Positions 217 through 20,043 of a stretch of DNA of 64,000 nucleotides are shown piece after piece (position 1 is the stretch's first letter; the number at the start of each line of letters is the position of its first letter). The notes below the pieces were generated by a model. The model searched no databases and had not been told where the DNA came from. It was given only the letters and a program-made list of their open reading frames with translations. The position numbers and the translations under genes are program-made. The stretch lies in IMG/VR virus record IMGVR_UViG_3300036987_000420, positions 1-64,000 of that record; one strand, 5' to 3'. The stretch is from a virus. Taxonomy: Duplodnaviria > Caudoviricetes.

Positions 217-291
<75 letters not shown>

Positions 292-1847: not shown

Positions 1848-1849
1848 GG

Positions 1850-2104
1850 TCAGCTCCGGGACCGTGCGGCGGAGACCATGTCGTCCAGCGCGGTGAGGAT
1901 CGCGTCCTCGTCGACCACCGCGCAGTCCGGGACGCGGTCGCCGAAGCCGGCGCGGTTCAGCGCTGAGACCAGGCGCGACAGCCAATCCTCAACGGCGGCG
2001 AGCGGCTCCACGGCGCCGGAGTAGTGCACCGGCACGCTCTGCGCGCTGCGCTCCGGGGCCGGCAGCGCGGCGGTTGCCGCGGTGGGCGAGGGCGAGGGCG
2101 TCAC
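1850..2104 (-). CDS. Hypothetical phage protein
   Basis: GTG start coupled to the upstream stop; part of the leftward operon. Confidence 0.5.
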   Translation of the reverse strand: MTPSPSPTAATAALPAPERSAQSVPVHYSGAVEPLAAVEDWLSRLVSALNRAGFGDRVPDCAVVDEDAILTALDDMVSAARSRS

Positions 2105-2766: not shown

Positions 2767-2834
2767 GTCTCTCCTCCCTCTCCCGCCCCGGGCTCGCCGG
2801 GGCCCTGGCCCGCCGCGGGGCGGGACCGCGTGTG

Positions 2835-3269: not shown

Positions 3270-3503
3270 GTCTCTCCCCCTCCCCCGCTCCCGCGGGTCC
3301 CGGCCGCGCCGGGGCTACCATCCATATCCGTTGCGGGTCCATACACCACGCAGTTTATGCGGCATCATCCGCGTCCACGTCCGCTTGGCCGGGCGCGTCC
3401 CGCTGCGCCACGGGTGCCCCGCCTCGCGCGCGTCGGCGGCCCATCGTCGGATGCGCCTCGCGACCGTGCCTCTCATCATCCCTCCGTCCCGGCCGCGCCG
3501 GGG

Positions 3504-3710
3504 TCAGGTCACGTCCGCGCGCTCGGGCGCGGGCACCGGCTCGTGCTCGCCGCACCAGTCGTCGGTCGTCACCTCTGGCCACGCCGTCTCGACGCGCACC
3601 CACGTCTGCACCGCCTCCTGCATCGGCACTGGCACAGGCACGGGCGGGCGCAGGCGGCAGATCCCGCGGCTCGTGTCGTAGAACCGGCACGTCTCACAGG
3701 TCGGTCGCAT
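3504..3710 (-). CDS. Small Cys-rich phage protein
   Basis: CETCRFY...CRLRPP...WP.V...DWCGEH, a pattern common in small phage early proteins; GGAGGGAGG RBS. Confidence 0.75.
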   Translation of the reverse strand: MRPTCETCRFYDTSRGICRLRPPVPVPVPMQEAVQTWVRVETAWPEVTTDDWCGEHEPVPAPERADVT

Positions 3711-4782
3711 CGCTGCCTCCCTCCGCGCGCTCGGGCGCGGGCTGGGCGAGGGCGCGGATGTTGTCCGCCAGCCGGGCCGCGACAAGGGCGCGCTCCTCCC
3801 AAAGCAACGCGGCCGCGTGCTCGCCCATCGCGCGGCTCTTGCGCGCGGCGGCCTCGTGCCGGTCGTGCTCGACGTCGCAGAGGTCCTCCGCCGCCGCCCG
3901 CACCGGGCACGCCGGCGGGCACGCCGCGGGCAGGGCGGGCCCCCCCGCCGGCGCGGGCGCCGGGGCGGCGAGGGCGGCGCCGAGCGCCACGTCGAGGGCC
4001 CCGTCTGTCTGGCGGAGGAAGGCGACCCGGCGGGCCTTCGTCGCGGCCCCGTCCGCGATGCGCAGGAGCCGTCGCGCCTCGACGATGCCGCCCCGCAGCC
4101 CCTCCACCTGCGCCGCGAGGGCGCGGGCGCGGGACCGCTCGGCATTCGCGATCTTGCCCGCCTGGAGCGCGTCATTGAGCGCGCTTGCGAAGTCGGCGCG
4201 GGCGTGGCTGCGCTCCTCGATACACATGGACAGCGAGTACTCCAGCGCATCGATCCGGTCGCTGCCGCCGGGGTCGATCTCCAGCCGCGCCCGCGCCTCG
4301 TCCCGCCCCCGCTCCGCCGCCTGCCGGGCCGCGGCCTCCGACTCCGCCCGCTCGCGCCACAGATCGGCCGATGTCCGCAAAGATCTCGCTCGGCGCTCGC
4401 CGGCCTCGCGGACAGCATCGATGTTGGCGAGCGCCTCGTCCCGCTCCCGCTCGGCCGCCTGCGCTCGCCCCCACTGGAGATCGATCAGGACCTGCGCGGA
4501 TTCCCGGGCCGCGGCCTCCCGGTCGGCGCGGGCCGTCTGCGCCGCGAGCGCCGTCTCCGCCGCGTGCCGCCCGATCAGTGCCTCGGCATAGCGGACGATG
4601 CGCGTGACGCCCGCCTCCTCCTCCGGCGAGAGGTCGTCCGGTACGTCCTCGGGCCCGACGGCGGTGTCCACGTCGTCTTCGTCGTACAGCGCGAGCAGCG
4701 CCGCCCCGACGCGCGCGCGGTCGTCCGCCGTCATCGCCGCGATGCGGTCGCGCATGGCCTGGACTCGCTCACTCGTCCCCAT
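3694..4782 (-). CDS. Hypothetical coiled-coil protein
   Basis: Long Ala/Glu/Arg-rich helical ORF, coupled in the operon. Confidence 0.6.
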   Translation of the reverse strand: MGTSERVQAMRDRIAAMTADDRARVGAALLALYDEDDVDTAVGPEDVPDDLSPEEEAGVTRIVRYAEALIGRHAAETALAAQTARADREAAARESAQVLIDLQWGRAQAAERERDEALANIDAVREAGERRARSLRTSADLWRERAESEAAARQAAERGRDEARARLEIDPGGSDRIDALEYSLSMCIEERSHARADFASALNDALQAGKIANAERSRARALAAQVEGLRGGIVEARRLLRIADGAATKARRVAFLRQTDGALDVALGAALAAPAPAPAGGPALPAACPPACPVRAAAEDLCDVEHDRHEAAARKSRAMGEHAAALLWEERALVAARLADNIRALAQPAPERAEGGSDATDL

Positions 4783-5221
4783 CGCGCACATCCCCCGCCG
4801 CGCGGGCGGCCCGCGCCAAGTCTCGCTCGCGCCCGGCGAAGCAGTGTTCGCAAACGAGCGCCGAGTCATAGTCTCCGGCGCGTTTCCGGTCTCCGGGCCA
4901 CAACGGGCCGATGAATTCGAGCGCGTCGCTGAAGAAGTAGGCAGACCCGATCATGTCGCCGCCGTGGAACGGCCAGCGCCGGACGCGATACCATCCGGAA
5001 CGGAGCGTGCGCTGATGATGGTCCGCGTTCGTCGGGTAGAAGACGACGATGCGCCCAAGGTCGCCGTCAGACGCGAGCCCATCGTAGCTTTCCTCGCACA
5101 GGCCACAGACCTCGCGGCTGTCGGAGTAGCAGTCTCCGCAGACATCCTCTCCGTCTACGGCGCCGCCCGTCTCGTCCGGGTCGTATTCCTCGCCGCACTT
5201 CGGGCACACGCGCTTGCTCAC
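4769..5221 (-). CDS. Multi-CxxC zinc-binding hypothetical protein
   Basis: CPKC, CGDC, CGLC, CEHC motifs; GTG start overlaps the upstream stop. Confidence 0.7.
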   Translation of the reverse strand: MSKRVCPKCGEEYDPDETGGAVDGEDVCGDCYSDSREVCGLCEESYDGLASDGDLGRIVVFYPTNADHHQRTLRSGWYRVRRWPFHGGDMIGSAYFFSDALEFIGPLWPGDRKRAGDYDSALVCEHCFAGRERDLARAARAAGDVRDGDE

Positions 5222-5769
5222 TTCGTCGTCTCCGTCTCCGCCGCGCGGGCGGCCCGCTCCCGGTCGTCTCCGATCTCGCGGAGCATGTCGCCGAGGTCGC
5301 GCAGCGCATCCACGACGACGGCCGGTGCGTCCCCGCGCGTGACGAGCGGGTCCAGCCGGTCGTGCGCCGTAGCCATCGCCCGGACGACCGCCTCCATGCG
5401 GCCAGACATCCCGGGCGGGTCCCATCCGTCGTCGCAGGTTCCGAGGGCGGTCAGGCCCGGCGTCAGGGCGGCCAGCGCCGCGCTCGTGGTGTCGGCGCGC
5501 TCGGCGACGACGTAGCGCCCGCCCTGCCACACCCGCGCGACCCGGCCGCGGCCCTCGCGCTGGACAACGACGCAGGCGTCGGCGGTCACGGTGCAGGGCA
5601 CGACCGGCGCGCCGACGCGCTCGGCCCACAGGCCCCACGTGCGGCCGTGCGAGCGGTCGCCGGGCTGGTCGGTCGGGCGGGCGGCGCGACACTCCTCGAG
5701 CAGCTCGCGATCGTCGTCCGTGGCCACGCGCTCGACGTAGGCGCGGATGGCGTCGATGCTGTTGCTCAC
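5218..5769 (-). CDS. Hypothetical phage protein
   Basis: Translationally coupled (GTGA overlaps) on both sides. Confidence 0.6.
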   Translation of the reverse strand: MSNSIDAIRAYVERVATDDDRELLEECRAARPTDQPGDRSHGRTWGLWAERVGAPVVPCTVTADACVVVQREGRGRVARVWQGGRYVVAERADTTSAALAALTPGLTALGTCDDGWDPPGMSGRMEAVVRAMATAHDRLDPLVTRGDAPAVVVDALRDLGDMLREIGDDRERAARAAETETTK

Positions 5770-7355
5770 GCGCTCATCTCCTCTGCCCGCTCCTCGACCC
5801 AGACGCCCTCGCCGCCGAGGATGAAGCTCATCCCCGCGTCGACGGCGAGCAGCGAGCGGCCGATGGTCTCCGCTATGGCCTGGGCCGCCCCGACCGGGAC
5901 GGCGTTCCCGATGCGCTCCAGCCACGCCCCCTTGCGGCGCCCAGCGAGCGTGAGCGGCCGGCCGTCCGGCATCCGCATCGGCAGTCCCTGAAGGGCAGCC
6001 AGCTCGAGCGGCGTGAGCGGCCGGTGCCAGGTTCCGTCCTCCGCGACGATGACCGGCGGCGGGTCGGGGCAGTCGGTGTCGGCCGGGATGCGCGGGTCGG
6101 CGACGGCGGCCGCGCCCGCGTGCACGTCGGCGCTGCCGATGACGGTGCCGGCGGGCTGGTCCCAGGGGAGCACGCCCAGGACGGTGTTCCGCGGCCGGCA
6201 GTCGAGGCGGGCGTCCGCGACGCCGAACACGCAGGAGCGGCCGACGCCCTCCCCGCCGGTCACGGTCGGCGCGGCCTGGTCCCAGCGGACGACGCGGTAG
6301 GCGCCCGGCCGCGGCGCGTGGTCGAGCCGCGGGTCAGCGACGCAGGTCCCCGACGCCGTCGGCGTGCCGCCGCTCGTCACGGCGCCGGCCGTCTCGTCCC
6401 AGCGGGCCACCCGCAGGACGTTGTTGAACGGCACCCGCGGGTCGGCGACGGCAGCCGTGCCGTTGCTGCCGCTCGGGCTGGCGCTGCCGGTGACGGCGCC
6501 CGTGGGCTCGCCCCAGGGCGCGACGCCCATCAGGCCCGGGCGCCCCTTGAAGCGCGCGACGTCCTCCGGGTCGGCCACGACGGCGTACCGGCCCTCTTCG
6601 GGGAGGTCGCGCCAGTCTCCGCCGGCGGGGATGAGGGCGAGCCGCACCCAGGTCCGCCACTGGAGCCGCGGCAGCCGGTGCAGCTCGCCGGCCTCCGGCG
6701 CGTCCGGCAGCGGAATCGCTTCCAGGACCTCGCCGATGCTCCGCACCCGCAGCTTCGGCGGGTGGTAGACGAACGCCGGCACCTGCGGGGCGTGGCGCGC
6801 GATGAGGAGGAAGCGCCGGCGGTGCTGCCCGAGGCCGCCGAGCTCGCCGCAGTCGTGCCCGCCCTCGTGCAGCCGGTAGCCGGCGGCGGAGAGCATCACG
6901 CGCACCTGGTGCAGGAGCTGGGCGCCGCGCGTCTGGATGCGCGGAACGTTCTCCAGGAGCAGCAGCCGCGGCGGCCGGCGCGGCCAGGTCTCCAGGACGA
7001 GGGCGATGCCCTGGAGCACGAGCCGGTTCAGCGCCTGGTACTTCTCGCCCTCGGACGACGCGCGGGAGAGCAGCCCAGAGAAGCCCTTGCAGGGCGGCGA
7101 CAGGAACACCACGTCGGGCGCCTCGTCGCCGGCCGCGGCGCGCAGCTCGTCGGGCGTCATCGTCGCGAGGTCGGCCTGGACCGCCGTCGCGCCGGTGAGC
7201 GCCTCGAAGTCGGCGCAGGCCGCCGGGTCGTTGTCCACCCCGGCGACGCAGCGGAAGCGCGCCGCGGCGTCGAGGTAGCGCGGGCGCGCCGCGGCGAAGC
7301 CCAGCTCGGCGCCCCCGAGGCCGCAGAAGAGGTGCAGGACGGTGTAGGTCTTCAC
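5766..7355 (-). CDS. C5-cytosine DNA methyltransferase with repeated variable-region modules
   Basis: Motif I LFCGLGG, IV SPPCKGFS, VI ENV, VIII QHRRR, X IGNAVP. Confidence 0.92.
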   Translation of the reverse strand: MKTYTVLHLFCGLGGAELGFAAARPRYLDAAARFRCVAGVDNDPAACADFEALTGATAVQADLATMTPDELRAAAGDEAPDVVFLSPPCKGFSGLLSRASSEGEKYQALNRLVLQGIALVLETWPRRPPRLLLLENVPRIQTRGAQLLHQVRVMLSAAGYRLHEGGHDCGELGGLGQHRRRFLLIARHAPQVPAFVYHPPKLRVRSIGEVLEAIPLPDAPEAGELHRLPRLQWRTWVRLALIPAGGDWRDLPEEGRYAVVADPEDVARFKGRPGLMGVAPWGEPTGAVTGSASPSGSNGTAAVADPRVPFNNVLRVARWDETAGAVTSGGTPTASGTCVADPRLDHAPRPGAYRVVRWDQAAPTVTGGEGVGRSCVFGVADARLDCRPRNTVLGVLPWDQPAGTVIGSADVHAGAAAVADPRIPADTDCPDPPPVIVAEDGTWHRPLTPLELAALQGLPMRMPDGRPLTLAGRRKGAWLERIGNAVPVGAAQAIAETIGRSLLAVDAGMSFILGGEGVWVEERAEEMSA

Positions 7356-7612
7356 GCCGCCGTTCCCTTCCCGTCCGTCAGGTCGTCCATCTCGCACTCG
7401 GCCACGTGGTAGAGCGTCGGCGCGTGCCGCAGGTCGAGCGGCCACACGTCGGCCCACTCGACGCAGTCAGGATCGCCGCAGCCGTACATGCACGGCGGCG
7501 GGTTGCGGTTGCCGGACGTGTCCGGGATGTCGCAGACCGTCGGGCCGCCGGCGTAGAACCCGGCCCCCTGACGGACCACTACGCGGTCTCCGACCTTGCG
7601 GCGCGTGCTCAC
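7352..7612 (-). CDS. Small Cys-containing hypothetical protein
   Basis: Coupled GTG start; CMYGCGDPDC. Confidence 0.6.
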   Translation of the reverse strand: MSTRRKVGDRVVVRQGAGFYAGGPTVCDIPDTSGNRNPPPCMYGCGDPDCVEWADVWPLDLRHAPTLYHVAECEMDDLTDGKGTAA

Positions 7613-8064
7613 GTGGCCGCTCCCCTCCAGGCGGCCGGGACGTCCGGCGGCCGGGCGCTCACGAGCGAGTGCGCCTTGCGGCAGTCCGGGCAGGCGAGCA
7701 TGCCGAGGCTCCACCCGAACGCTGGCGCCCAGAGCGCGCGCTCCTCGCCGGTGTCGCGCCCCTTCGCTCTGCGCTCGTGGATGACGGCCTCGTCCGCGCC
7801 GCAGCCGTGGAACTCGCAGACGAGAAGCGGCGGGCGCGTGGCGGGGTCGAGAAGCGCGTACAGCTCTTCGGCGAGCTGCTCGCTCCGCCGGCACCACCGC
7901 ACCAACTCGTCGATGGGCACGTTCGGGCCGTGCGTCTTCTCGCCGACGTAGACGGTCCAGCGCTTCCGGCCCTGCCAGTCGCGCGGGGAGACGATGAGCG
8001 CGATGCCGTTTCGGTACGCGAACCGAACGACCTTGAGCACGTCCATCTGCTGTCGCTTGGACAC
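7609..8064 (-). CDS. Hypothetical protein with possible Zn ribbon
   Basis: GGAGG RBS; CEFHGC...CPDC. Confidence 0.6.
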   Translation of the reverse strand: MSKRQQMDVLKVVRFAYRNGIALIVSPRDWQGRKRWTVYVGEKTHGPNVPIDELVRWCRRSEQLAEELYALLDPATRPPLLVCEFHGCGADEAVIHERRAKGRDTGEERALWAPAFGWSLGMLACPDCRKAHSLVSARPPDVPAAWRGAAT

Positions 8065-8065
8065 G

Positions 8066-8776
8066 TCAGTCCTCCGCGTCGTCACCGCTGCCAGGGGCCC
8101 GGCCGGCGTCCTCGAGGGCCTGCCCCAGGTCGAGCAGTGCCTGCGTCGGGTCCCAGCCCTTGCGCTGGTCGCGCACCGCGCACTGCGCCGGGTAGACGAG
8201 ACCGCGAAGCTGCTCGACCTCCTCCTCGAGCTCGACGACGCGGGCGGGGCGCCGGCGGTGCTCCGGCTGGAGGTCCTCCCCGCGCTCGCGCTCGACCTGC
8301 TCGACCGGCCGGCCCGTGTAGGCGGCCTCGGCGGCGCAGAGCAGCCGGAAGGCCTCCGTGCCCGGCCCGACGAGGTAGCCGAGGTCCGGGTTCTCCTGGG
8401 CCCGGTCGAGCAGGTAGCGGACGGCGTCGTAGAGCGCGTCCCGCGGGTCGAGCCGTCCGACAACGGCGCGACGGATCTGCCCCGGGATGTCGAGGCCGGC
8501 GAGCAGCTCGCCGACGGTGCCGGGGACGACGACGCGGTCGAGCCCCAGGCCGCGGTGTGCCATCCACTCGCCGTCGCCGAACACCTCCTCGACGACGTCG
8601 GCCAGGGGGCGCGCCGTCGTGCGGTCGGAGTGCGCCGTGAGCTGCGCGGCCCGCTCCGGCGTGTACAGCCCGGCCCTCCCGAGCAGGTCCGTGTAGTCGC
8701 ACCCGCCCGGGCCCCACCATCGGCCGCGGCCGGTGCGCCGGTCCCGGTTCACCTCGAGCAGCATCGCGTCGTCCAT
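8066..8776 (-). CDS. Hypothetical phage protein
   Basis: GAGGAG RBS before MDDAMLLEV; fills the operon gap. Confidence 0.6.
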   Translation of the reverse strand: MDDAMLLEVNRDRRTGRGRWWGPGGCDYTDLLGRAGLYTPERAAQLTAHSDRTTARPLADVVEEVFGDGEWMAHRGLGLDRVVVPGTVGELLAGLDIPGQIRRAVVGRLDPRDALYDAVRYLLDRAQENPDLGYLVGPGTEAFRLLCAAEAAYTGRPVEQVERERGEDLQPEHRRRPARVVELEEEVEQLRGLVYPAQCAVRDQRKGWDPTQALLDLGQALEDAGRAPGSGDDAED

Positions 8777-8787
8777 CGTCTCGCTCC

Positions 8788-9162
8788 TCACTCCACCCGG
8801 GCGGTCCATCCGCCGTTCGGCAGGTACAGCGCGTCGCGCCCCAGGGCTGCGCGCGCCACGTGGTAGCGGCTCGCCGCGAGCGCGTACCACTGCGCCGTCG
8901 TCCGAGCTGCCAGCAGGTCCGGCACGGCGGCCAGCAGCTTCTCGGCCGCCGCCTTCGCCCGGGCCACGTCCGGCAGGCAGTTCAGGACCGACCCGCCGGT
9001 CGCCACGTGGGCCACCGTCTGCCCGGCGCTGCCCGGCTTGCGGCCCGGCAGGACCGGCGTGGCGTGGACCGCCAGCGGGCCGCACACCAAAGCGTCCACC
9101 TCGCGGGCGCCCGACTCTCCCCGGATGGTGACGCGGCCCTTCTGCCAGCGGTGCCTGGTCAC
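8788..9162 (-). CDS. Hypothetical phage protein
   Basis: Coupled GTG start at the stop of the upstream gene. Confidence 0.55.
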   Translation of the reverse strand: MTRHRWQKGRVTIRGESGAREVDALVCGPLAVHATPVLPGRKPGSAGQTVAHVATGGSVLNCLPDVARAKAAAEKLLAAVPDLLAARTTAQWYALAASRYHVARAALGRDALYLPNGGWTARVE

Positions 9163-9923
9163 GCGTCCCCCTCGTCGTCGCCGTCGCCGCGGCTGAGCCC
9201 GTCTTCTCCGAAGGCGCCGGCCCCGTGACCGCTGTTCGCCAGCAGGTCGAACAGGGTCTCCTTGAAGCCGTTGGTCTCGACTCGCCGCAGGTCCACTTCG
9301 CCGGGGTACGTGAGCAGGAAGGTCCGCAGCGCGCGGTGCGTGATGCGGTACGGTGACCGGCTGCCGCAGTCGCTCACTCGCTTCGCCTGGAGCTTCCCCG
9401 CCTCGACCCAGCGGACCACCTTCTTCGGGTCGCAGCCCATGACCTGCGCCGCCGCCCAGGCCGTGTAGTACGTCCCGCGCCGGTACAGCCGCAGGCGCTT
9501 GGCCCGCACGCGGCAGGCCGTCTCGGGCCGCCCGAGCGCCTTCGCGATGGCCTTCCAGCTCGACCGAGACACGAGATTCGCGAGCCGCTCCTCTTCCTCG
9601 GGCGTCCAGGCGCGCGTCTCGCCGCGGGGCCGGCTCAGCCCGAGCAGGTGTGCCCGTCGGCGGATGTCCCAGCGCTCCCGGCCGAGGCGCCGGGCGAGCT
9701 TCGTGATGGTCTCCGGCCGGCTGTCGTAGACGCGGCGCAGCTCGGCGTCCTCGTCGGCCGTCCAGGGCGCCCGCTTCCGCCGGCGCCCGCCGCAGCCGCC
9801 CTTCTCGCCCAGCGCCTTCTGGGCGCAGGGGTTGCTGCAGTAGGTGCGCGGGTAGCCGGCCGAGTGCTCCGCCGGGATGGGCGCGCCGCAGAAGCCACAG
9901 GCGTTGTCGATGGCGGCGACCAC
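9159..9923 (-). CDS. DNA-binding protein: Zn finger + two Myb/SANT-like repeats + HTH_17-like domain
   Basis: CGFC..CSNPC; PWTADEDAEL and AWTPEEEERL...WKAIAKALGR; AAQVMGCDPKKVVRWVEAGKL. Confidence 0.75.
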   Translation of the reverse strand: MVAAIDNACGFCGAPIPAEHSAGYPRTYCSNPCAQKALGEKGGCGGRRRKRAPWTADEDAELRRVYDSRPETITKLARRLGRERWDIRRRAHLLGLSRPRGETRAWTPEEEERLANLVSRSSWKAIAKALGRPETACRVRAKRLRLYRRGTYYTAWAAAQVMGCDPKKVVRWVEAGKLQAKRVSDCGSRSPYRITHRALRTFLLTYPGEVDLRRVETNGFKETLFDLLANSGHGAGAFGEDGLSRGDGDDEGDA

Positions 9924-9926
9924 GGC

Positions 9927-10757
9927 TCAGGCCTCCCCCTTCACGAGGCAGCGCACGCCGGCGCGGCGGCACTGCTCGACGATGCTGGCGATCCAGCGCC
10001 GGTCGCAGGGGCGCCGGCGCGGCCCCGTCTCCGGACCGACGATGACGAGGTCGACAGCCGCCAGCAGATCCGGGATGAAGATCACCTGCTCGAGCAGCGG
10101 CTCCACGCTCAGCCAGCGATGCGACGCCGGGGTGTCCAGCAGGATCGACAGACGCCGGACGGCGTCGGCCTGCGTGCAGATGCTGGCGCCCTCCCAGACG
10201 TTGGTCAGGGGCCAGCTCGCCGCATAGTACCCGCGCAGCACGATGCGGTGCGCATCGTGTCGTCGAGCCATCTGAACGCAGTGGTCGAGCGGGGTGAGCT
10301 TCAGATCGGTGCGCGGGCCTGTGTACTTGGCGAGACGCCGGGCACACTCGGCCGGCAGCCAGGCGTGAAACGCGTGGCGCCTGACGACGTCCTTCGTGAG
10401 CGTCAGGAACGACACGTAGGGCTGTGCCGCCATCACCCCGTACACGGCAGCCCGCTGCTCGTCGGTGATGCCCGGGTCGAACAGGTCGCCCTGGTAGGCG
10501 ACAGCGACCACAGGCAGCCCCTCCAGGCGCAGCGGGACGTCCTTCCAGCGCTCGGGCCGCCAGTGCAGCGGATCCGCCAGGCGGTCGACGTGGAACGTCG
10601 GCGTGAACCCGTGGCCGGCGGTCACCTGCGGGAACCGTTCGGCGTTCGCGCGGGCCCAGCAGTTCGGACGGCACAGCTCGGTGGTGCACGTCCGCGGCGA
10701 ACAGCCGGTGACCGGGTTCCAGGGCCGCCAGTAGATGCTCGTGCGCTCGGCTTCCAC
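9927..10757 (-). CDS. DUF5131 / phage Gp37-Gp68 family protein
   Basis: WNPVTGC...C..NCWA, GDLF, WLSVEPLL, VIVGPETG...W...IVEQC. Confidence 0.85.
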   Translation of the reverse strand: MEAERTSIYWRPWNPVTGCSPRTCTTELCRPNCWARANAERFPQVTAGHGFTPTFHVDRLADPLHWRPERWKDVPLRLEGLPVVAVAYQGDLFDPGITDEQRAAVYGVMAAQPYVSFLTLTKDVVRRHAFHAWLPAECARRLAKYTGPRTDLKLTPLDHCVQMARRHDAHRIVLRGYYAASWPLTNVWEGASICTQADAVRRLSILLDTPASHRWLSVEPLLEQVIFIPDLLAAVDLVIVGPETGPRRRPCDRRWIASIVEQCRRAGVRCLVKGEA

Positions 10758-10758
10758 G

Positions 10759-11223
10759 TCAGTCCTCCATCCGCGCCAGCACGTCGGCCGGCACGTCCCA
10801 GAAGCCGAGCCGACCCGCGCACGGGAAGGGCTCGGAGAACCGCACTGCATCGGTGACGAGCAGCGCCGTCAGGCCGCTCACGTCGTAGAGGTGGCGCAGC
10901 CGGTCGCGACCGGACTCCGGCATCCGCAGGTCGACGGCCGCGACCACGTCGCCGGCTCGCATGGGGCGCACGCCCACGAGACGGACCAGGCCGACGATGC
11001 CCGGCCGGTACTCGGCGCGGCCGAGGTCGACGCCGTACTCCGCGAGGGCGCGGATGGCGCTGCGGTCGACGGCCTGGCTCGCGTGCACCGCGATCCGCTG
11101 CCCGACGAGGTGCCGCGCCTCGCGCTGGCCCGGGTAGCCGGGCGACCACTCGCGGGTCTCCACCGTCTTCCGGCCCGCGACGATCAACCACGCCCAGGGG
11201 TGCTTGATGCTCAGCGCCTTCAC
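10759..11223 (-). CDS. ASCH domain protein
   Basis: KALSIKHPWAWLIVAGRKTVETREW...IAVHAS...G.LGFWDV. Confidence 0.9.
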   Translation of the reverse strand: MKALSIKHPWAWLIVAGRKTVETREWSPGYPGQREARHLVGQRIAVHASQAVDRSAIRALAEYGVDLGRAEYRPGIVGLVRLVGVRPMRAGDVVAAVDLRMPESGRDRLRHLYDVSGLTALLVTDAVRFSEPFPCAGRLGFWDVPADVLARMED

Positions 11224-11224
11224 G

Positions 11225-12994
11225 TCACGCCCCCATCTCCCGCACGAATCGACTGGGCTCGCACGGCTCCTCGGCGGCGCCGGGGTACGGCACGCGAATC
11301 GCGGGACTCGTGACGACGAGGTGGTCGCGCGCTCGGGTGCACGCGACGTAGAAGAGGCGCCGCTCCTCGGCCAGGTCGTCCGGGTTGCGGGCGGCGCTCG
11401 CCGTCGGCCAGGCGCTCTCGGCCGCGCCGACGACGTAGACCACCGGCCACTCCAGGCCCTTCGCACCGTGCACCGTCGAGAGGGTGACGGCGTCCTCCTC
11501 GCCGGCGCCGGCCGGCTCGACGTCGGAGAGCGCGGCGCGGTGCGCGAGGAACGCCGCCGGGTCCACGTCGACCGTGTCGTCGTCGAAGCGCTCGTCCGTC
11601 CACTCCTCAACGAGCGCGACTGCATCGGGCTCCTGGGCGCCCTGTCGCGCCGTCCACTTCCACGCCCAGCGTGCGATCGTTCCGGCGGACACCGGACCGT
11701 TGGCGGCCGACTCCGCGGAGATGCCGGTGGTGAAGTCGCGCACCATCGGCAGGCACTCCAGCAACGGCCGGCGCTCCGTCGCGGCGCGCAGGCGGGCGGC
11801 GGCGACGTCCTCTCCGAGGGCGGCGCCGAGCGTCTCGGCGGCGAGGTCGTCGTGCGGGTCGACGCACAGGCGCAGTGCGGCGAGCACGACGCGGCCCTCC
11901 GGCGTCGCGAACGGGTCGGCCGGCCGGCGCAGGCGGCGCGTCGGGATGCCGCGGTCGGCCAGCGCCTGCTCGACGGCGTCGAGGTCGCGCCAGCGGCGGG
12001 CGAGGATGGCAACGTCGCGGGGCCGCGACAGCGCGAGCGACACATAAACCCACGCCGAGACGAGCGCGGGCTCGGCGCAGGACACGCCGGGCACGTCGAC
12101 CCCGGCGCGCAGCGTGGCGACGCTCGGGTCGGTCGTCTCCTCCCGCGCCGCCTCGCAGTCCGGCAGCCCGAGCCCCATCGCCCGCGCGATGCGGTTGGCC
12201 GCCTCGACGATGCCGGGGCGGCTGCGGTAGTTCGTGGCGAGGTGGTAGGTGTGCCAGTCGTCGCGGCCGAGCAGGCGCACGAAGGCAGCTGGCTCTGCCC
12301 CGCGGAAGCGGTAGATGCTCTGCCGCGGGTCGCCGACGCAGTAGAGGTGCCCGCGCTCGCAGGTGACCGCGACCACGAACTGCCACTGGGCGACGGAGCA
12401 GTCCTGCGACTCGTCGACGAGCACGTGATCCCACAGCCCGTCGAGGTGGCCCTCCATCGCGGCGTGGACGACGGCTCGCTCCAGCTCGTCGTAGTCTACG
12501 GCGTTGGCGCGCTTCAGGATGTCGGCGTAGCAGCGTGCCGCCCGCTCGCTGCCGAGCGTCTTCGCGACGTCGACCCGCCGCGGGTCGCTGCCGCGCACGT
12601 AGGAGACCTTCGCGCCGGCGTCCCGGGCCGCCCGCTCGACGGCCGCCTCGACGTCCGACGTCTCGTAGAGCACCCAGCCCGGCCGGCGGCAGGCCCACTG
12701 CGGGTGGCGCTGCAGGAGCTGGTAGGCGAGCCCGTGGAAGGTGCCGATGTACATCGCCTCCGCGGCCTCGCCGCTGACGAGCTCGCCGACGCGGCTGCGC
12801 AGCTCGGCGGCCGCGGCGCGGGTGAACGTCAACGCGACGATGCGCTCCGGCAGAACGGCGCGCTCGACGAGCAGGTGGCCGACGCGCTCGGTGAGCACGC
12901 GCGTCTTGCCGCTGCCGGCGCCGGCGATGACGACGACGCGGGCCTCCGCGGCCTCGACGGCGGCGAGCTGGGTGGGGCTGAGCTGCATCACCAT
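11225..12994 (-). CDS. UvrD/Rep/PcrA-family SF1 helicase
   Basis: [63 protein letters not shown]. Confidence 0.95.
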
Positions 12995-13479
12995 CCTCCG
13001 TCATCCTCGGCAGCCGGCGCGCCGGTCGCGTTCGTGCGGGGCGCCGCGGGGGCCGAGGCCGGCCGACTCGGCGGCGGTCCGTATCCGCCACCGTAGCCGC
13101 CGCGGTCGTCGTCCTGCGGCGGCGGCGGGTCGTCCCGGCGCCGGCCGGCGCCCGGCGTGCCGCCCAGGAACTCGACGTGCGACGCGACGACCTCGGTGGT
13201 CTGGTGTCGCTGGCCGTCCTTCTCCCACTCGCGCGTCTGCAGCTTGCCCTCGACGTAGACCTGCCGGCCCTTCGCGAGGTGCTCCTTACAGACCTCGGCG
13301 AGCCGCCCCCAGGCGATGACGCGGTGCCACTCGGTGCGCTCCTGGCGCTTGCCGTCGCGGTCCGTCCACACCTCGTTGGTGGCGACGCGGAGGTTCGCCA
13401 CGGGCTGGTTGCTGGCGGTGTACCGGATCTCCGGGTCCGCGCCGAGATTGCCGATGAGGATGACCTTGTTGATGCCCAT
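12988..13479 (-). CDS. ssb: Single-stranded DNA-binding protein
   Basis: [15 protein letters not shown]...TEWHRVI.WG...[14 protein letters not shown]; acidic/aromatic C-terminal tip. Confidence 0.97.
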
Positions 13480-15944
13480 CAGGCCGCCTCGCCTTCCCCG
13501 GCCGCAGCCGCCGTCTCGGCCTGCGCCGCGAGCGCCGCGCGGACGCGCTTCTTCTTCGCGGTGTCGGCGGCGACCATCGCCGTCGACTCGCGCTTCGCGG
13601 CCTCGCGGACCTCGGCGCCGCACTGGCAGCCGCGCGCCCGGTGGGCGTCGACGCGGATGCGCTGCCCGTCGCAGAAGACGTAGTCGGTGGGCTCCAGGCC
13701 GCCGGCCTCCGGCGGGTCCGGCACGACGGCGCCGGCCTCGTCGACCACGGCGGCCGGCGAATGCTGGTGCGCGTCGCAGACGAACACGGCAGGCGTCCGC
13801 GGGCTGTCGCGGTGCGCCTGGACGATGGCGACGCCGCTGCCGGCGAGCTTGTGCGCCAGGTCCGGCACGACGACGCCGGCGATGCCCTCGGCGACGTCGA
13901 CCCGCATCGCGCAGAGCACGGCGGACAGTCGGCCGGCGCGCTGCTCCTCGGCGAGCACGCGCACCAGGCGGATGGCGCGGTCGGTCTCGAGCGCCTCGAG
14001 CCGGTCGATGACGACGGCGCGGAAGGGTGCTACGCTCGGATCTCCCTGCGACTGAAGGGATTGAGACGCGTACATCAGCGCGACGCCGCAGACGATCTGC
14101 TCGCTGTCGCTGAGCGCGGAGTAGGGGCGCCAGGCGTCCGACCCCTCCGGCCCGCCGGCGTCGAAGGTGACGAGACCGAAGCCCCAGGCAGCGGGCTCGT
14201 CGCCGTTCGCGGGCAGCGGCCGGAACGCGAAGCCGCGCGCCAGCGGGTCGCCGCCGTACACCGGCCGGACGATCCGGTCGGCGTGCGCGGTCACGGCGGC
14301 CGCCGATCGCCGCGCCAGCTCGACGCCGAACGCGCCGAGCGCGCGCTCCAGGGCCCCCCAGGTCGCCCGCGCCAGGATGGCCGCGTCGAGGTCGGCCTCG
14401 TTCGCGGCCCGCAGGCGCTCGGCCTCCTCGAAACCGGCGAGCCGGGCGACCTGGTCGGACACGGCGGTCAGATCCGCCTCGCGCTTGTCGCGCGCCCCCT
14501 CCAGGTCGCCGACACCCTCGAGCGGCGGCAGGGCGGCGAGCGCCTGCTCCGCGGCGACGAGCTCCGAGCGGGCGGACGCGACGACCGCGGCGGCCTCGGA
14601 CCGGGCGCGCTCCCCGGACGCGGCGCGCTGGGCGGCGGCGTGCGCGGCGCGCAGCGCGTCGGTGGCGCTGCGCTCGGCGTTCTCGGCCTCGCTGGCGGCG
14701 GCGTAGGCGTCGTCGGCCGCCCGCCGCGCGGCGTCGCCCCGCACCCCGAGCACCGCCTCCCGGCGCGCCAGTCCGGTGCGCTTCTCCTGGATGGCGGAGC
14801 GCGCGGCGTCGAGCGCGCCGCCGGTCGTGCCGCAGGTCGGACAGTGCCCGTCGGCGAGCGCGACGAGCGTCTGGTCGATGCGCGACAGGTCGCCACGCAC
14901 GTCCCGCAGCTTCGCCTCGACCTCGGCCGCGGCGTTGTGCGCGGCGACCGCCGCCGCGCCGAGCTCCTTGCGGCGCGCGGTGGCGGCGTCGGCCGTCGCC
15001 TGGGCCTGCGCGACGGCGCCGGGGGCCGCCTCGGCTGGCGCCTGGGCGGCCGCGCCGGGCCGCTGCTCCGCCGCGGTGACCCGCTGCCGCGCCGTCTCGA
15101 CGCGCGCCGCGGCCCGCTGGCGCTCGGCCTGCGCCTGGGCACGGGCGGCGAGCTTCTCGCGGACGGCGGTCAGCTCCTCGCGGACGCGGCGCTCCCGCGC
15201 CTGGGCGTCGGCCAGCGTCCCGGGCGGCAGGTCGTCGCGGCGCAGGTCGACCAGCCGGCCGCGGGCCTTCTCGGCCTCGGCCTTGCGCCTCTGCCACTCG
15301 TTCTTCTGGACGCGCGCGTGCTCCTTCGCGCCCTCCAGTCCGTCGGCGGCGAGCGCCTCGGCCACGGCGGCGAGCTGCGCCGCGTCCGGGCGGCCCTGGC
15401 GCGGCTGCCCGCGGGCGTCGTCGTACTCCACCTCGGTCCGGCGCAGGCGGTCGTCGAGGTCGGCGCGGATGGCCGGGTCGGCGAGCGTCACGCCGGCGAC
15501 CTTCGCTACCAGCGCGGCCTGCTTCTCGGTCGTGAGGCTGATGAAGTCGGCGAGGTCGGTCGGCTGCATCCGCTGCGCGCCGAGGTGCGCGGCGAGACCC
15601 GCCTCGACCCCCTTCGCGTCCTTCACGAGCGGCTCGTCGCCGATGCTGAGGCGCGCCTCGTGCTTGGCGCCCAGGATGCGGGTGAGGCGCAGCGGCCGGC
15701 CGTCGCTGGTCTCGCCCTCGACGCCGAGCTCGACGCGGCCGCAGTCCGCCGCGATGTCGCCGAGCTGCGCCGGGGTGGCGCTGCCACCGATGCGGGTGCC
15801 GAGGGCGAGATGGCAGGCGAGCAGGCGGGCCGACTTGCCGCTGCCGTTCGGGCCGACGACCAGCGTCGGGCGGGTGAGGTCGAGCACGAAGCGGCGGCCC
15901 TTGACGCCGTCGCCGTCGGCGATGATGGTGCGGATGGTGGTCAT
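13479..15944 (-). CDS. Rad50/SbcC/SMC-like ATPase with coiled coil and zinc hook
   Basis: Walker A GPNGSGKS, long coiled coil with central CPTC hook, signature LSDSE, Walker-B-like VVIDRLE. Confidence 0.85.
14030..14067 (+). CRISPR. Solitary CRISPR-repeat-like unit C, inside the SMC-like gene (antisense)
   Basis: CTACGCTCGGATCT-CCCT-GCGACTGA-AGGG-ATTGAGAC; 4-bp stem, 8-nt loop, 8-nt handle-like 3' end; not part of an array. Confidence 0.65.
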
Positions 15945-16255
15945 CGAGTCCCCCCTCGGTGCCGCAGTGCGGCGATGATGGTCCGGGCGTCGGCGGCGCC
16001 GATCCTCGCGCCCTTCTCCCCTGCCTCGACGGCGCGCAGGCGGTCGATGGCCAGCGCCAGGTCGCTGTCGTCTCGCTGCTCGGCCGCGCGCACCACGGCC
16101 GACACCCGCTCCACGTCGCGCAGCGTCGCCGACACCGCGGTCATGTAGAGCGCGCGCGGCGTCGCCCGGGTCAGGTCGATCGCCCTGCGATGGTCGGCGT
16201 CCTCGGCGTCGGAAAGACGCAGGCGCACGCAGTGCGGACGAGGCGCTCTGTTCAT
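15941..16255 (-). CDS. Hypothetical protein, possible RHH-like N-terminus
   Basis: GGAGAGGA RBS; VRLRLSDAE pattern; coupled to the SMC-like gene. Confidence 0.5.
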
Positions 16256-16499
16256 CTGCAGAAGTCCTCTCCAGAAAAGGAGCGTCGTGCCTCGCCGGTC
16301 GGACGCGTCCAGTCGCGCTCTCGGGGCAGTCGGTGCGGTCCGTCGTTCGTACACCGCACAGGCACGTCGTTTTTCAGCGCCCCTCGCTCCTTGCGCCCCC
16401 GGGTGGAGTCGGACCACCCTGGCGAACCCGCTCCTGGACGCGCGGGCTGCCTCCCCGGTAGGGGCACGCCGGGCCACAACACGGGCCCGGCCGGCGCTG

Positions 16500-17822
16500 C
16501 TACGCCGCCCGCGTCGCCAGCGTCGCCAGGGCGCGCAGCGTCTCCTCGAGGATGGCGGCCTGGGCCTCGTCGGCCGCCCAGCTCCCGTCCTTCGCCGGCC
16601 GCGGGAACTCCGGGTCGTCGGCCCGGATCTCGTCGAGGGCCTCACGCAGACGCGCCTTCGCGGCGTCCATGTCGCCGCCCTCGAGCTCGAGCGCGACGCC
16701 GCGGACGTGCTGCCACAGCGGGGACGGCCCGGACCCGTTGCTCGGCGTCCGCGACTCGGCGGCCGGCTGCGGCGCCGGCGTCTCCGCCGGGAGCTGGTCC
16801 GCCGGCTCCTGGTCGGGCGCCTCGACCGCGTCGTCGACCTCCTCCACGTCCTCGACGTCTTCGATGTCCTCCTCGGGCTCCGACGGCAGGTCGGCGGCCG
16901 GGGTCGCGCGGACGAGTGGCTCCTCGACGTGGGCGGCGAGCTGCGCCAGGGGGCGGGCGCCGGCGCCCAGCACGCGGCCCGACTCGTAGGCGGACTGCGC
17001 CGCCTCGATCATCGCGAGGGCCGGGCCGGCGAAGCCGAGGTACACCGTCCAGACCCCGGCGGCGCCGTGGGCGGTGCGGCTGCGCTTCATGCGGAGCAGC
17101 AGCGGGACGGCGGAGAGCGTCGGGACCTTCTCCTCGTCGACCAGCCGCTGCAGCTCGTCGATGACGCCCTGCGTCTCGTCGAGGCCGATGATCGACTTGC
17201 TGCGGTAGCGGACGACGCCGAACGTCGACTCCAGCGCGGCGAGCTGCAGGCGCAGCTCCCACTCCGCGGCGCAGCGCGGGAACACCGGCTGCTTCCCGGT
17301 CGCGTCCATGCGGGCGTACCACGGGCACTCCGTGCCGTTGCAGACGACGGTCGTCGCGGCGCCGAGGTCGTTCTCCGCGCCGACGGGCTTGAAGCCCTGC
17401 GGCAGCGGCGCCACGACGCCGTCGTCGGACACGCGGTGCCGGTGGCACGCCGTCTGGCCGTCGCCCTGGCAGACGACCGTGTCGCCGTCCTTCGTGCGGG
17501 CCCGGAACTGGCTGCCGAAGATGCCGTCCAGGTCGCGCGCCGGCGCGAGGTAGACGCGGATGGCGCGCAGCTTGGCCGTGGGCTCCTCGGGCGCCAGCCG
17601 CGCCTGCTCCTCGAGCAGCCGCGCCATGAGGGCGTCGTCGACCTGCCGGTTGCCGGCGGCGTCGTCGGGGTCGACGCCGGGCAGACAGACCTCCATGTAG
17701 TCGAGCCGCTCCGGGTAGGTCGGACGGCCGTCCTTCAGGCGCCGGCGGCCGATGCGGATGTGCCGCTCGGTCGGCAGCGTGCCCACGGCGCGGCCGGGGC
17801 GCAGGTTCACGATGCGGGGCAT
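16500..17822 (-). CDS. Gp3-like (recombination directionality factor-like) family protein
   Basis: IRIG.R...G.PTYPERLDY, VCQGDGQTA, C.G..CPWY...C...L.LQL...G..RY.SKS; acidic linker tail; GAGGA RBS. Confidence 0.65.
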   Translation of the reverse strand: MPRIVNLRPGRAVGTLPTERHIRIGRRRLKDGRPTYPERLDYMEVCLPGVDPDDAAGNRQVDDALMARLLEEQARLAPEEPTAKLRAIRVYLAPARDLDGIFGSQFRARTKDGDTVVCQGDGQTACHRHRVSDDGVVAPLPQGFKPVGAENDLGAATTVVCNGTECPWYARMDATGKQPVFPRCAAEWELRLQLAALESTFGVVRYRSKSIIGLDETQGVIDELQRLVDEEKVPTLSAVPLLLRMKRSRTAHGAAGVWTVYLGFAGPALAMIEAAQSAYESGRVLGAGARPLAQLAAHVEEPLVRATPAADLPSEPEEDIEDVEDVEEVDDAVEAPDQEPADQLPAETPAPQPAAESRTPSNGSGPSPLWQHVRGVALELEGGDMDAAKARLREALDEIRADDPEFPRPAKDGSWAADEAQAAILEETLRALATLATRAA

Positions 17823-17857
17823 GGTGTCCTCCTCTCGCGGCCGCTGGGCGGCCGGTG

Positions 17858-18043
17858 TCAGTCGTGGTCGCGCTCCCAGGCCGCGTCCGTGGCACGGTCC
17901 TCGGCGAGCGACTCGAGGTGCGCGATGCGGCGCTCCCGCGCCTCGTCGCCGGTGTCCTGGCACTCGTCGTCGCTGCGGTGGATCCCACCGCATCGATTGC
18001 ACACGTCGGGCAGATCGCACCACTCGACGGCCATGCTCGTCAT
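17858..18043 (-). CDS. Small hypothetical protein with CxxC..H
   Basis: CNRCGGIH...C; coupled start. Confidence 0.55.
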   Translation of the reverse strand: MTSMAVEWCDLPDVCNRCGGIHRSDDECQDTGDEARERRIAHLESLAEDRATDAAWERDHD

Positions 18044-18324
18044 CCTCGCAGCTCGCACTCGTAGAGGTCGCGCAGCGTGCACACGCCGGCCGGACACTGC
18101 CCGGGGCTCGGGCACTCCACGAACGGCACGGCGCAGTCCGCCAGCGCCCCCGGGAAGGTGCGCACGGGCCGGCCGGCCACGCGGCCGCAGACGGCCACCC
18201 GGATGCGGCCCAGGCCGACGCCCGGGACGGCGTCGTCGAGCGGCGCGCAGGCGCCGGTCAGGGCCCACGGCGCGACCACGTCGGGGTGCGGGTTCGTCTG
18301 GTAGTCGTTGGCCCGGTTGCGCAT
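18040..18324 (-). CDS. Small Cys-rich hypothetical protein
   Basis: GAGGAGGAGG RBS. Confidence 0.55.
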   Translation of the reverse strand: MRNRANDYQTNPHPDVVAPWALTGACAPLDDAVPGVGLGRIRVAVCGRVAGRPVRTFPGALADCAVPFVECPSPGQCPAGVCTLRDLYECELRG

Positions 18325-18616
18325 CGCTTCCTCCTCCTCGAGCGAGAGGGGTGCCCCGGGCCGGCGGCAGAGTCGGCAGGCCGCCGGCCCGGGGCTGGAG
18401 GAGGACACGGGCGCCGCATCCTGCTGGCGTCCCGGCAGGTCGCCGCGCCCGGCGTGACGAGAACGGCTCCGCTCGGCTCGCCGGTCCGGCGAGTCTTTGG
18501 GCCGTGCTCGCCACGCCGCGCGTGGCGACGGGCTCTGTCCTCCCCCCGTGCCCGGCAGGGTGGTCACGAGGCGCTCTCTGGCAGCCAGGTACGGAAGGAG
18601 AGGCGTACAAAGGCGG

Positions 18617-18691
18617 CCTCCCGGTCGGTGGTACTCTCGTCGTGCCACCGACGTCCCCGACGTGCGGGGATGAGACACACCGACAGGGAGG
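18617..18691 (+). promoter_or_regulatory. Inverted-repeat cassette with extended -10 promoter and degenerate CRISPR-repeat-like leader (unit D)
   Basis: IR arms CCTCCCGGTCGGTG (18617-30) / CACCGACAGGGAGG (18678-91); TG-G-TACTCT; GTGCCACCGACGT-CCCC-GACGTGC-GGGG-ATGAGAC (18642-76). Confidence 0.5.
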
Positions 18692-18696
18692 CCAGG

Positions 18697-18993
18697 ATGG
18701 ACGAACTACGGATCCCATTCGTCGTCGCGTGCGACTGCGGCGCGAGTTTCTGGGTCGACGCCCAGCAGCTTGCGACCCCGGGCCTGGTGTTCCAGTGCCC
18801 ATCGTGCCTGACGTACCACCGGAATGTGCTGAGCCCGGCGCCAGAACTGGTACGGTCGTTCGCGGCCCGTCACGCCGCGCTCCGAGACGTCGTCAAGCGT
18901 GGAGGCCGCGTAACACAGGCCATCGAGAGCGACCTTCCGTTCGTGCGCGGCGAGCGGGAGTCGCTCGACGATCCGGGCTGCAAGCCGCAGTAG
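18697..18993 (+). CDS. Zinc-ribbon protein, counter-oriented to the left operon
   Basis: CDCG...CPSC; GGGAGG RBS; own promoter. Confidence 0.65.
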   Translation: MDELRIPFVVACDCGASFWVDAQQLATPGLVFQCPSCLTYHRNVLSPAPELVRSFAARHAALRDVVKRGGRVTQAIESDLPFVRGERESLDDPGCKPQ

Positions 18994-19065
18994 CCAGACC
19001 ACGAACAGCACCCGCCGCAGCCGAACCACCCGCCCGGTCGCCCGGCCCGCGTAGCGCAGAGACAT
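18706..19065 (-). CDS. Hypothetical first gene of the PL operon (overlaps the zinc-ribbon ORF antisense)
   Basis: Strong GGAGGAGGGGAGG RBS just downstream of PL; could be a shadow ORF. Confidence 0.4.
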   Translation of the reverse strand: MSLRYAGRATGRVVRLRRVLFVVWLLRLAARIVERLPLAAHERKVALDGLCYAASTLDDVSERGVTGRERPYQFWRRAQHIPVVRQARWALEHQARGRKLLGVDPETRAAVARDDEWDP

Positions 19066-19275
19066 GGCCCTCCCCTCCTCCGTCCTGGTTGCCACAGAGC
19101 GACCCGTGCCCGCCCTCTCCGCTCCCCCGCACCGTCGGTCGCGCGCTGGGTCATGGCCCGGCCGGCGGGGTCGGGCTCACGCGCCGGAACGCGCTCACCC
19201 GGTGGTCCGCGGCCGACGACGGCTGCGGTCGCCAGCGCGCTGCGGGGCTGTCAGAGATCGCCGAGCACGAGGGGG

Positions 19276-19328
19276 ATATTAGGAGCTGCCTAATCAGGCG
19301 TCAAGTGCAAAATTAGCCCGCCCCTAAC
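19276..19328 (-). promoter_or_regulatory. Leftward early promoter PL with operators OL1/OL2
   Basis: Minus strand TTGACG-N17-TAATAT; palindromes ATTAGG-AGCTG-CCTAAT (19278-94) and ATTAGC-CCGCC-CCTAAC (19312-28). Confidence 0.85.
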
Positions 19329-19394
19329 TGTTCGGCCGCGCCGGCCGGCAGCGGCCATCGGTGCGGCGAAGTGCGGCGGACGGGAGGGGTGGGG

Positions 19395-19613
19395 CTACAG
19401 CAGCGCGACGAACTCGTCGGCGGTCAGCTCGGCGGCGCGCAGGATGGCGGCCAGGGTGCCGCGGTCCAGCTCGTGGTGCAGGGGGACGGTGACGGGCGGA
19501 CGGCCCGGACAGGTGAGGCGGGCGTGGCTGCCGCGCTGGCGCGCCACCACGTAGCCGAGGCGGCCCAGCGCGCGGACGCAGACGCGGCCCGAGACGACGG
19601 GCAGCTCGGCCAT
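19395..19613 (-). CDS. hicA: HicA-family mRNA interferase toxin
   Basis: LPVVSGR....AL.RLGY...RQRGSHARL......VTVPLH.ELDRGTLAAILR.A. Confidence 0.93.
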   Translation of the reverse strand: MAELPVVSGRVCVRALGRLGYVVARQRGSHARLTCPGRPPVTVPLHHELDRGTLAAILRAAELTADEFVALL

Positions 19614-19834
19614 CAGGCCGCGACCTCCACCCGCACCACCTCCACCGTGCCGGGCAGCTCCCAGCCCTCGGCGGCGCGGTTCTCGAGGCACAGCGCGATG
19701 GCCTCGCGGATGCCGTCCAGCGCCTCCGCGCGGGTGCGGCCCTGCGAGACGCAGCCGGGGATGACGGGGCAGGTCGCGACGACCCAGCCGTCCTGGCCCG
19801 GGGTGAGGATCACGGGGAGCGACGTCGGCGTCAT
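19613..19834 (-). CDS. hicB: HicB-family antitoxin (short form, no DNA-binding domain)
   Basis: DGWVVATCPVIPGCVSQGRTRAEALDGIREAIALCLE; coupled upstream of hicA. Confidence 0.93.
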   Translation of the reverse strand: MTPTSLPVILTPGQDGWVVATCPVIPGCVSQGRTRAEALDGIREAIALCLENRAAEGWELPGTVEVVRVEVAA

Positions 19835-20043
19835 GGGCACCTCCTCGACCGAGGATAGCGCCCGCACGGCACGGGCGCCAGGGGACGGTGCGGGCGGCAG
19901 CGCGCGGCGACGCGGCGCTCGACGCGCTTCGGGAGCGCCAGCAGGCGCGCGACCTCGGCGTCGGACAGCTCGGCCACGCCCTCCTCCTCAGTCGCCCCGC
20001 CAGCCGCCCGGGCGCCGCAGGCAGGCGCCGCGCGCCCCGCAGA

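Follow-up and report, generated by a model that had tools for sequence, protein, structure and literature searches.

Solitary repeat units (SRUs), lone copies of a CRISPR repeat in cas-less mobile elements, and RNA anti-CRISPRs (Racrs), small RNAs that inhibit immunity by binding Cas6 or backbone Cas proteins, are established in viruses (Camara-Wilpert et al. 2023; PMC10651486). By definition SRUs are intergenic and in repeat sense, with a promoter at most 250 bp upstream, and the program SRUfinder masks open reading frames (ORFs) and treats intragenic matches as probable false positives (PMC10651486), so that a repeat unit read in frame within a gene is excluded from the survey by design. In type III CRISPR systems, pairing between the 5′ tag of the CRISPR RNA (crRNA) and an anti-tag flanking the target blocks interference, which is licensed only without such tag–flank pairing (PMC6024849). 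In one type III-B complex, activation is limited when the flank pairs at positions −2 to −5, and the tolerance of mismatches beyond the first segment restricts mutational escape (PMC8682760). Antisense transcripts of the array itself are spared by type III effectors (PMC6024849; PMC8682760 for type III-B). Here we describe a repeat unit, termed unit C, inside the Rad50/SMC-like ATPase gene of a Caudoviricetes prophage, analyzed in a stretch of 64,000 nucleotides (nt) that forms positions 1 to 64,000 of the IMG/VR record IMGVR_UViG_3300036987_000420 (the window). Like the SRUs and Racrs, unit C is a single copy of a CRISPR repeat in a cas-less prophage, with handle and hairpin preserved and with several dispersed copies in the element. 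It differs from them in being intragenic, translated in frame and antisense to the crRNA orientation, with no promoter-like site within 250 nt. The gene and the parts of the unit are as follows.

13479–15944, minus strand: gene for a Rad50/SbcC/SMC-like ABC ATPase of 821 amino acids.
14029–14067, minus strand: unit C, one CRISPR-repeat-derived unit, in-frame codons 627–639, between the ABC signature and Walker B.
14060–14067, minus strand: putative anti-tag GTCTCAAT in mRNA sense, complement of the 8-nt crRNA 5′ tag AUUGAGAC, assigned from the orientation of real arrays.
14044–14059, minus strand: hairpin of the unit C core, CCCT-TCAGTCGC-AGGG.

Read in gene sense (14067 to 14029), unit C has the sequence GTCTCAATCCCTTCAGTCGCAGGGAGATCCGAGCGTAGC; its first base is the third of the Ala626 codon (14067), and its end lies 1–2 nt short of the Pro640 codon. 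Its codons are TCT CAA TCC CTT CAG TCG CAG GGA GAT CCG AGC GTA GCA, seven of which end in A or T, spread across the whole segment, in a gene whose G+C content at third codon positions (GC3) is 0.966. No other 13-codon stretch of the gene reaches this number, for which the binomial probability is 8e-8 per stretch and ~6e-5 after ~800 stretches. Within the window, the 24-nt core of the unit recurs only in two further units, unit A (40615–40638, plus strand) and unit B (44331–44354, plus strand). The pattern GTCTCAATCCCYTCANNNGCRGGG yielded three matches in the window versus 0.00 in 100 shuffles, even with two mismatches allowed, on which a chance match was rejected, and the 11-mer GTCTCAATCCC has four exact occurrences versus ~0.01 expected from base composition (G and C 0.37 each; A and T 0.13 each). 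Plain local alignment of unit A against the window gave unit C a score of 29, not separated from the GC-rich noise of the simulations (27.5 ± 2.1); the significance of unit C therefore rests on its A/T-rich handle and the pattern counts.

The tail of unit C, TACGCTCGGA (plus strand, 14031–14040), resembles TACGCTGCGGA, the reverse complement of the unit A tail, and the motif CCG(C)AG(C/G)GTA is common to the tails of all three units. The plus strand at 14060–14067 reads ATTGAGAC, a form of the 3′ handle ATTGA(A/G)AC, directly 5′ of which lie a 4-bp stem (CCCT/AGGG) and an 8-nt loop; one stem pair is altered on both sides relative to the CCCC/GGGG of units A and B and of real arrays. This strand folds into stem and handle at −10.6 kcal/mol with a z-score of only −1.3, and the hairpins of the units are generally weak (4–5 bp, z-scores near 0). 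No Rfam family matches the units, and a terminator at unit C was rejected for lack of a T run. The original prediction had recognized a CRISPR-like repeat in frame between signature and Walker B, with seven of 13 codons ending in A/T amid GC-ending flanks and an end part resembling unit A; all of this agrees with the core counts, the GC3 of 96.6% and the tail comparison, and the range it gave, 14030–14067, was correct to within 1–2 nt.

The homologues show what the unit displaced. In an alignment of 16 sequences, 14 homologues at 22–69% identity span the site, and their loop, counted from a conserved YA to the P(F/W)(R/K) ahead of Walker B, measures 5–8 residues, mostly 7 (for example YAMQQLGAR-PFR); a further homologue from a Myxococcota genome reads YALAVVGDR-PWK with ordinary codons. 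A loop of 13 residues occurs only in the protein studied here (P0001) and in a 99%-identical fragment (P0004). The divergent residues 627–639 coincide with unit C, and the sequence upstream is conserved right to the junction, Ala626 being nearly invariant. Since A/T-ending codons extend across the whole segment, the change is a replacement of ~21 nt by one ~39-nt unit and not an 18-nt insertion. Alignment and codon usage together demonstrate a swap of ~7 loop codons for the 13 codons of one repeat unit, with the frame kept and the rest of the gene intact-looking.

In the AlphaFold2 model, helix 613–631 is followed by loop 632–642 and strand 643–646, so that unit C covers the terminal part of the signature helix together with the loop ahead of the Walker B strand, and the predicted local distance difference test score (pLDDT) falls to 65 at residues 631–640 compared with ~90 on either side. 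An insertion or replacement tolerated in a loop had been proposed beforehand, together with the alignment and the structure model as checks. The replacement and the position in a loop of low model confidence stand, a plain insertion does not, and the opposing outcome, homologues that keep the same residues with GC-rich codons, was not seen. Conservation of the loop at the protein level was rejected, as no homologue has this loop. What is new here is the homologue evidence for a cassette replacement, the coincidence of the unit boundaries with the divergent residues, and two substitutions directly beside the unit.

We scanned 185,579 species genomes (596 Gb) with the degenerate core and found it in arrays of 5–47 repeats, with periods of 71–81 nt, in genomes of Chloroflexota, Rhodospirillales, Paracoccaceae, Ruegeria and Armatimonadetes. 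The array repeats have the same 24-nt architecture of 8-nt handle, 4-bp stem and 8-nt loop, and 22–24 of the 24 core positions, handle included, are common to them and the phage units. Single core matches numbered ~20, about the chance expectation for 596 Gb by our own estimate. The closest real repeats with the GTCTCAAT variant are two in a Bradymonadales metagenome-assembled genome (L028), and a metagenome scan with the core returned three single matches, including a repeat with the ATTGAGAC G variant at the end of a 73%-GC contig (L039). None of the arrays of this family from the genome scan has the tail of units A and C, and the 401 Myxococcota genomes contain no unit A-like repeat at ≤3 mismatches.

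The three arrays examined first have no cas genes in their flanks, and the informative loci came from Cas1 positions. In two genomes, the genes cmr2-cmr3-cmr4-cmr5-cmr6/1-CARF-cas1 are followed by the array, whose repeats, read in the cas direction, end in ...GGGGATTGAAAC. In this orientation, the A/T content of the upstream 150 nt is 0.54–0.69 versus 0.39–0.43 for the downstream 150 nt, and in three arrays the single mutated repeat is the last one. In the Bradymonadales contig, ~300 nt separate the array from the beginning of a PrimPol-cas1 operon, and the array, read outward from this gap, has the same orientation. The cas direction, the A/T-rich leaders and the mutated last repeats thus identify ...GGGGATTGAAAC as the 3′ end in crRNA sense, the family reading GTTGCA...CCCCGCC-loop-GGGGATTGAAAC. 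This genomic context links the repeat family to type III-B (Cmr) and implies that the phage mRNAs carry the reverse complement of the crRNA sense. Unit C is shown to be a genuine copy of a repeat whose CRISPR family type III-B systems use. On the Bradymonadales contig L028 (549–3580), the GTCTCAAT-variant repeats have as their neighbor a CRISPR-associated primase-polymerase (PrimPol type A1) that is joined with cas1 in one operon.

The prophage holds three full units and one partial copy in total, the further copies lying at the following positions.

40601–40651, plus strand: a 14-nt partial copy and, after it, the full unit A, which together occupy the space from a gene of 77 amino acids to the head-closure gene.
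44331–44380, plus strand: unit B, starting 2 nt past the stop codon of the tail sheath gene's downstream neighbor.

Unit B consists of the core, a GC-rich insert of ~15 nt (AGCGCCGCCGCCCGG, in the region 44355–44380) and the tail CCGCAGGGTAGAC, which matches the tails of units A and C. Both units lie on the coding strand of the neighboring genes and have the same orientation to transcription as unit C, and each of the phage units begins, in mRNA sense, with GUCUCAAU, which is complementary to the 8-nt tag of the crRNA. None of the copies is part of a tandem array beside cas genes, and no cas genes were found in the 73.6-kb record; solitary copies without cas genes identify repeat-derived solitary units rather than an array.

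The cores of units C and A differ at five positions, namely three in the loop and one compensatory stem pair (C-G to T-A), while the handle and the remaining stem bases are identical, and the variable positions also vary among real arrays. Some detection bias affects this confinement of differences, since a copy that had decayed at random would more easily be missed. Unit C is richer in A/T than unit A, contrary to the compositional pressure of the ATPase gene. These differences and the A/T content show signs of a constraint-like pattern.

Two side observations concern the surroundings of these units. With a start of the head-closure gene at GTG 40595, its frame would stay open through the partial copy and unit A (40595–40654), and unit A would be read in the same frame as unit C (TCT CAA TCC = SQS); a start at ATG 40652 is more likely than one at GTG 40595. 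The sequence directly before unit B (GCGTAGAC, containing the stop codon of the upstream gene) resembles a unit tail.

The coding segment that precedes unit C in the mRNA has a specific geometry.

14068–14102, minus strand: putative protospacer, the 35 nt directly 5′ of unit C in the mRNA, codons 615–626.

GUCUCAAU directly follows codons 615–626, which is, at the level of sequence, the geometry of a type III anti-tag. An exact 8-nt complement of a crRNA tag stands directly 3′ of a conserved 35-nt segment, as it would in an antisense transcript of an array. In contrast to the tag/anti-tag discrimination described for host arrays, the mark lies in a phage gene, and we infer its use by the phage. 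The segment is the one that had been named beforehand as a candidate protospacer. It also holds the only two differences between P0004 and P0001 in 327 residues, V618I and M624T, as codons 624 (14073–14075) and 618 (14091–14093) both fall within the 12 codons immediately upstream of unit C; the changed bases are positions 7 and 26 of the segment counted from the anti-tag. P0001 and P0004 each carry one departure from the family consensus (V618 and T624). The chance that both substitutions fall into these 12 codons is ~(12/327)^2 = 1.3e-3, calculated from the protein sequence only.

The explanation we favor, without granting it an even chance, is that the repeat was captured from a host array beside the segment being targeted and serves as a ‘self’ mark for type III systems. 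A type III spacer of the host would have matched the conserved signature-motif segment of the ATPase mRNA, and recombination or template switching between this protospacer and the matching array spacer would have copied the adjacent repeat into the phage, where the DNA was rejoined in frame in a tolerant loop. Pairing of the crRNA with the recombinant mRNA would then extend into the tag and be read as ‘self’, so that Cas10 would not be activated for this target; a broader antisense effect on crRNA repeats may exist in addition. The repeat of the source array should be close to TACGCTGCGGA-CCCCGCCCGTGAGGGG-ATTGAGAC. Because functional type III spacers are complementary to mRNA, units acquired in this way should be oriented with transcription, and capture from an array would explain why each unit abuts the 3′ end of a coding segment. 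Of the features predicted by capture, the orientation with transcription, a precise 5′ junction with unchanged upstream coding sequence and a looser 3′ junction are all seen. Phages and CRISPR loci reportedly recombine where spacer and protospacer are homologous, with transduction of CRISPR loci (Varble et al. 2019, Nature Microbiology). Recombination of this kind would give a spacer-adjacent repeat a route into a phage genome; it differs from the present case in that no single repeat fixed in frame in an essential-looking phage gene is known to have been described there. We found no paper on phages acquiring anti-tags, nor on antisense or in-frame repeat units. That phages can escape type III immunity in general by copying an array repeat beside the targeted segment, even within an essential coding region as long as the frame is kept, is possible in our view and on the doubtful side; the same tentative reading would take unit C and the two upstream substitutions as an arms-race footprint at the signature-motif segment of a Rad50-like gene.

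Several observations weigh against capture of a ‘self’ mark. Other bacteria with arrays of the same repeat family supplied 223 spacers, among which there is no matching one, their matches to the window being ≤21 nt, and the 14.7-kb host flank of the record contains no CRISPR array. The core, in its C or T variant, is present in no other viral contig of the collection; there is no second phage with such units, and the pattern is that of one prophage lineage. An anti-tag needs 8 nt only, which leaves the conserved hairpin explained merely as an inheritance from the source repeats, and the 14-nt partial copy at unit A is not predicted by simple spacer–protospacer recombination. The clustering of substitutions amounts to two events only, and the event at unit C could be recent and neutral.

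This last point leads to the rival that unit C is a functionless, recent and tolerated scar of illegitimate recombination or template switching with a host array or with another phage unit, which we consider unlikely, though it is a serious contender. Restriction of the unit to P0001 and the 99%-identical fragment dates the event after their divergence from P0003 (66–69% identity), and a scar would sit comfortably in the low-confidence loop of the AlphaFold2 model, with no promoter or terminator nearby and no counterpart in another phage of the viral collection. A scar accounts less readily for differences from units A and B that spare everything except the loop and one compensatory stem pair, for A/T-ending codons that persist despite the GC3 of the gene, for the single orientation of all units relative to transcription, and for the position of the close variant's only two substitutions directly upstream. 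It nevertheless fits most of the data as well as selection does, so that the original prediction went too far in concluding that selection keeps the repeat at this site.

The remaining rivals assign the units other roles. All copies are antisense to the crRNA orientation, they occur in an early replication gene as well as after structural (late) genes, and the 24-nt core is conserved in all three, as would be expected if anti-repeat transcripts paired with the repeats of host pre-crRNA or with mature crRNA tags and thereby lowered maturation or loading. Such an RNA anti-CRISPR would work by complementarity and not by mimicry, and would be available early in infection from the copy in the early gene. 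Three loop positions differ between units, however, and unit B carries its 15-nt insert, so that long perfect duplexes are not kept; with no precedent found in the papers searched either, we hold this antisense sponge to be improbable. More improbable again is a decoy of the Racr type, in which the plus strand would give rise to a small repeat-sense RNA, antisense to the ATPase mRNA, that diverts Cas6/Cmr in the manner of RacrIF1. A solitary repeat unit in a cas-less prophage is the known Racr context (PMC10651486), and the plus strand folds into the expected stem and handle. Yet the z-score of this fold is low, unit C is embedded in coding sequence, and every unit runs in the direction of the genes, something that an independent small-RNA gene would not require; nor did any of the three units show a sigma-70-like promoter within 250 nt on either strand, in a scan that used the sigma-70 consensus only and may not suit a 74%-GC organism. 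Hardly credible, finally, is an origin unrelated to CRISPR, be it chance on protein-constrained sequence or a phage hairpin for RNA processing or stability. The near-chance rate of single degenerate-core matches in the 596 Gb and the weakness of the hairpins fit such an origin, which is already largely refuted by the pattern counts in the 64 kb, the absence of this loop from every homologue, the 22–24 core positions shared with real array repeats and the common tail.

The window represents the first 64 kb of the provirus record, which is 73.6 kb long with ~74% G+C and in which the borders of the prophage can be delineated.

217–289: tRNA-Val.
247–291, plus strand: attL, at the 3′ end of tRNA-Val, with an exact 45-nt copy at attR.
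383–1606: integrase gene.
58947–58991: attR, an exact 45-nt repeat of attL.

The two sites enclose a prophage of ~58.7 kb with every repeat unit inside it. A gene map drawn from third-position G+C resolves two blocks, namely a leftward early block (383–19867) with a methylase, a UvrD helicase, SSB, the ATPase and a Gp3-like protein among its genes, and a rightward structural block (20654–58801) with head-closure, neck and tail sheath genes. A 159-nt direct repeat of 84% identity (449–607 and 59164–59322) has one copy in the 3′ part of the integrase gene and the other just beyond attR in a 70-codon ORF; it resembles what an earlier integrase at this tRNA-Val site would have left behind. A 22-nt tandem repeat (GACACGGTGTCACCCCAGGGGT, 2.5 copies) at 26190–26243, upstream of the divergent pair 26272–26448 (minus strand) and 26523–27335 (plus strand), may be an operator-like region. 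Outside the prophage, in the host flank, Rfam matched the domains D1–D4 of a group II intron at 62297–62432 with 76 bits.

The translated ATPase contains Walker A (GPNGSGKS), signature (LSDSE) and Walker B (VVID..E) motifs, with a long coiled coil separating Walker A from the signature and Walker B as in Rad50, SbcC and SMC proteins. The Pfam AAA_23/SMC_N and PHROG SbcC-like matches are weak; a profile search against the PDB returned SMC1A at 8e-15 and Rad50 at 2.5e-6. The AlphaFold2 model has a mean pLDDT of 81, and its best Foldseek match is Rad50 (7zr1_D, E 1e-15). Fold and profile searches confirm, on the modeled structure, a head of the Rad50/SMC type. At the apex of the predicted coiled coil, between helices 310–364 and 376–470, residues 368–372 form CPTCG within the apex motif GHCPTCG (residues 366–372, window 14830–14850), whose C, P, C and G are invariant in the four closest sequences; this apex looks like the zinc hook of Rad50/SbcC. 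Downstream of the ATPase gene lie two genes of a shared replication/recombination module.

11225–12994, minus strand: UvrD-family helicase.
12988–13476, minus strand: SSB.

The phage protein thus has the Walker A/signature/Walker B arrangement, the long antiparallel coiled coil and the CxxC apex in common with Rad50/SbcC/SMC ATPases and differs from them in its neighbors: beside its gene we identified SSB, the UvrD helicase and the Gp3-like protein and no Mre11/SbcD-type nuclease partner, and the ORF 15941–16645 has no Pfam match. The family is small, an exhaustive search detecting ~27 relatives among 1.8 billion representative proteins. The only full-length relative from a word-index search is P0003 (66% identity by BLASTP), and no relatives were found in the viral contig collection or among GenBank phages. 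A UvrD-like gene also follows the gene of the distant homologue that reads YALAVVGDR-PWK, in genome G225, a Myxococcota genome (L043).

Solitary repeats of phages are known as RNA decoys, and the surveys that found them masked coding regions and assumed sense orientation and a dedicated promoter. Unit C shows that a repeat unit can occupy a conserved phage gene, in frame and antisense, and that a loop held at 5–8 residues across an ATPase family can take 13 residues dictated by a foreign DNA element. It speaks for a physical exchange of DNA between phage genomes and CRISPR arrays and for a logic different from that of decoys, be it a borrowed ‘self’ mark of the host or an antisense effect. If true, this would argue for counting intragenic matches in repeat surveys and would provide a simple, testable escape route from type III systems, which point mutations rarely defeat.

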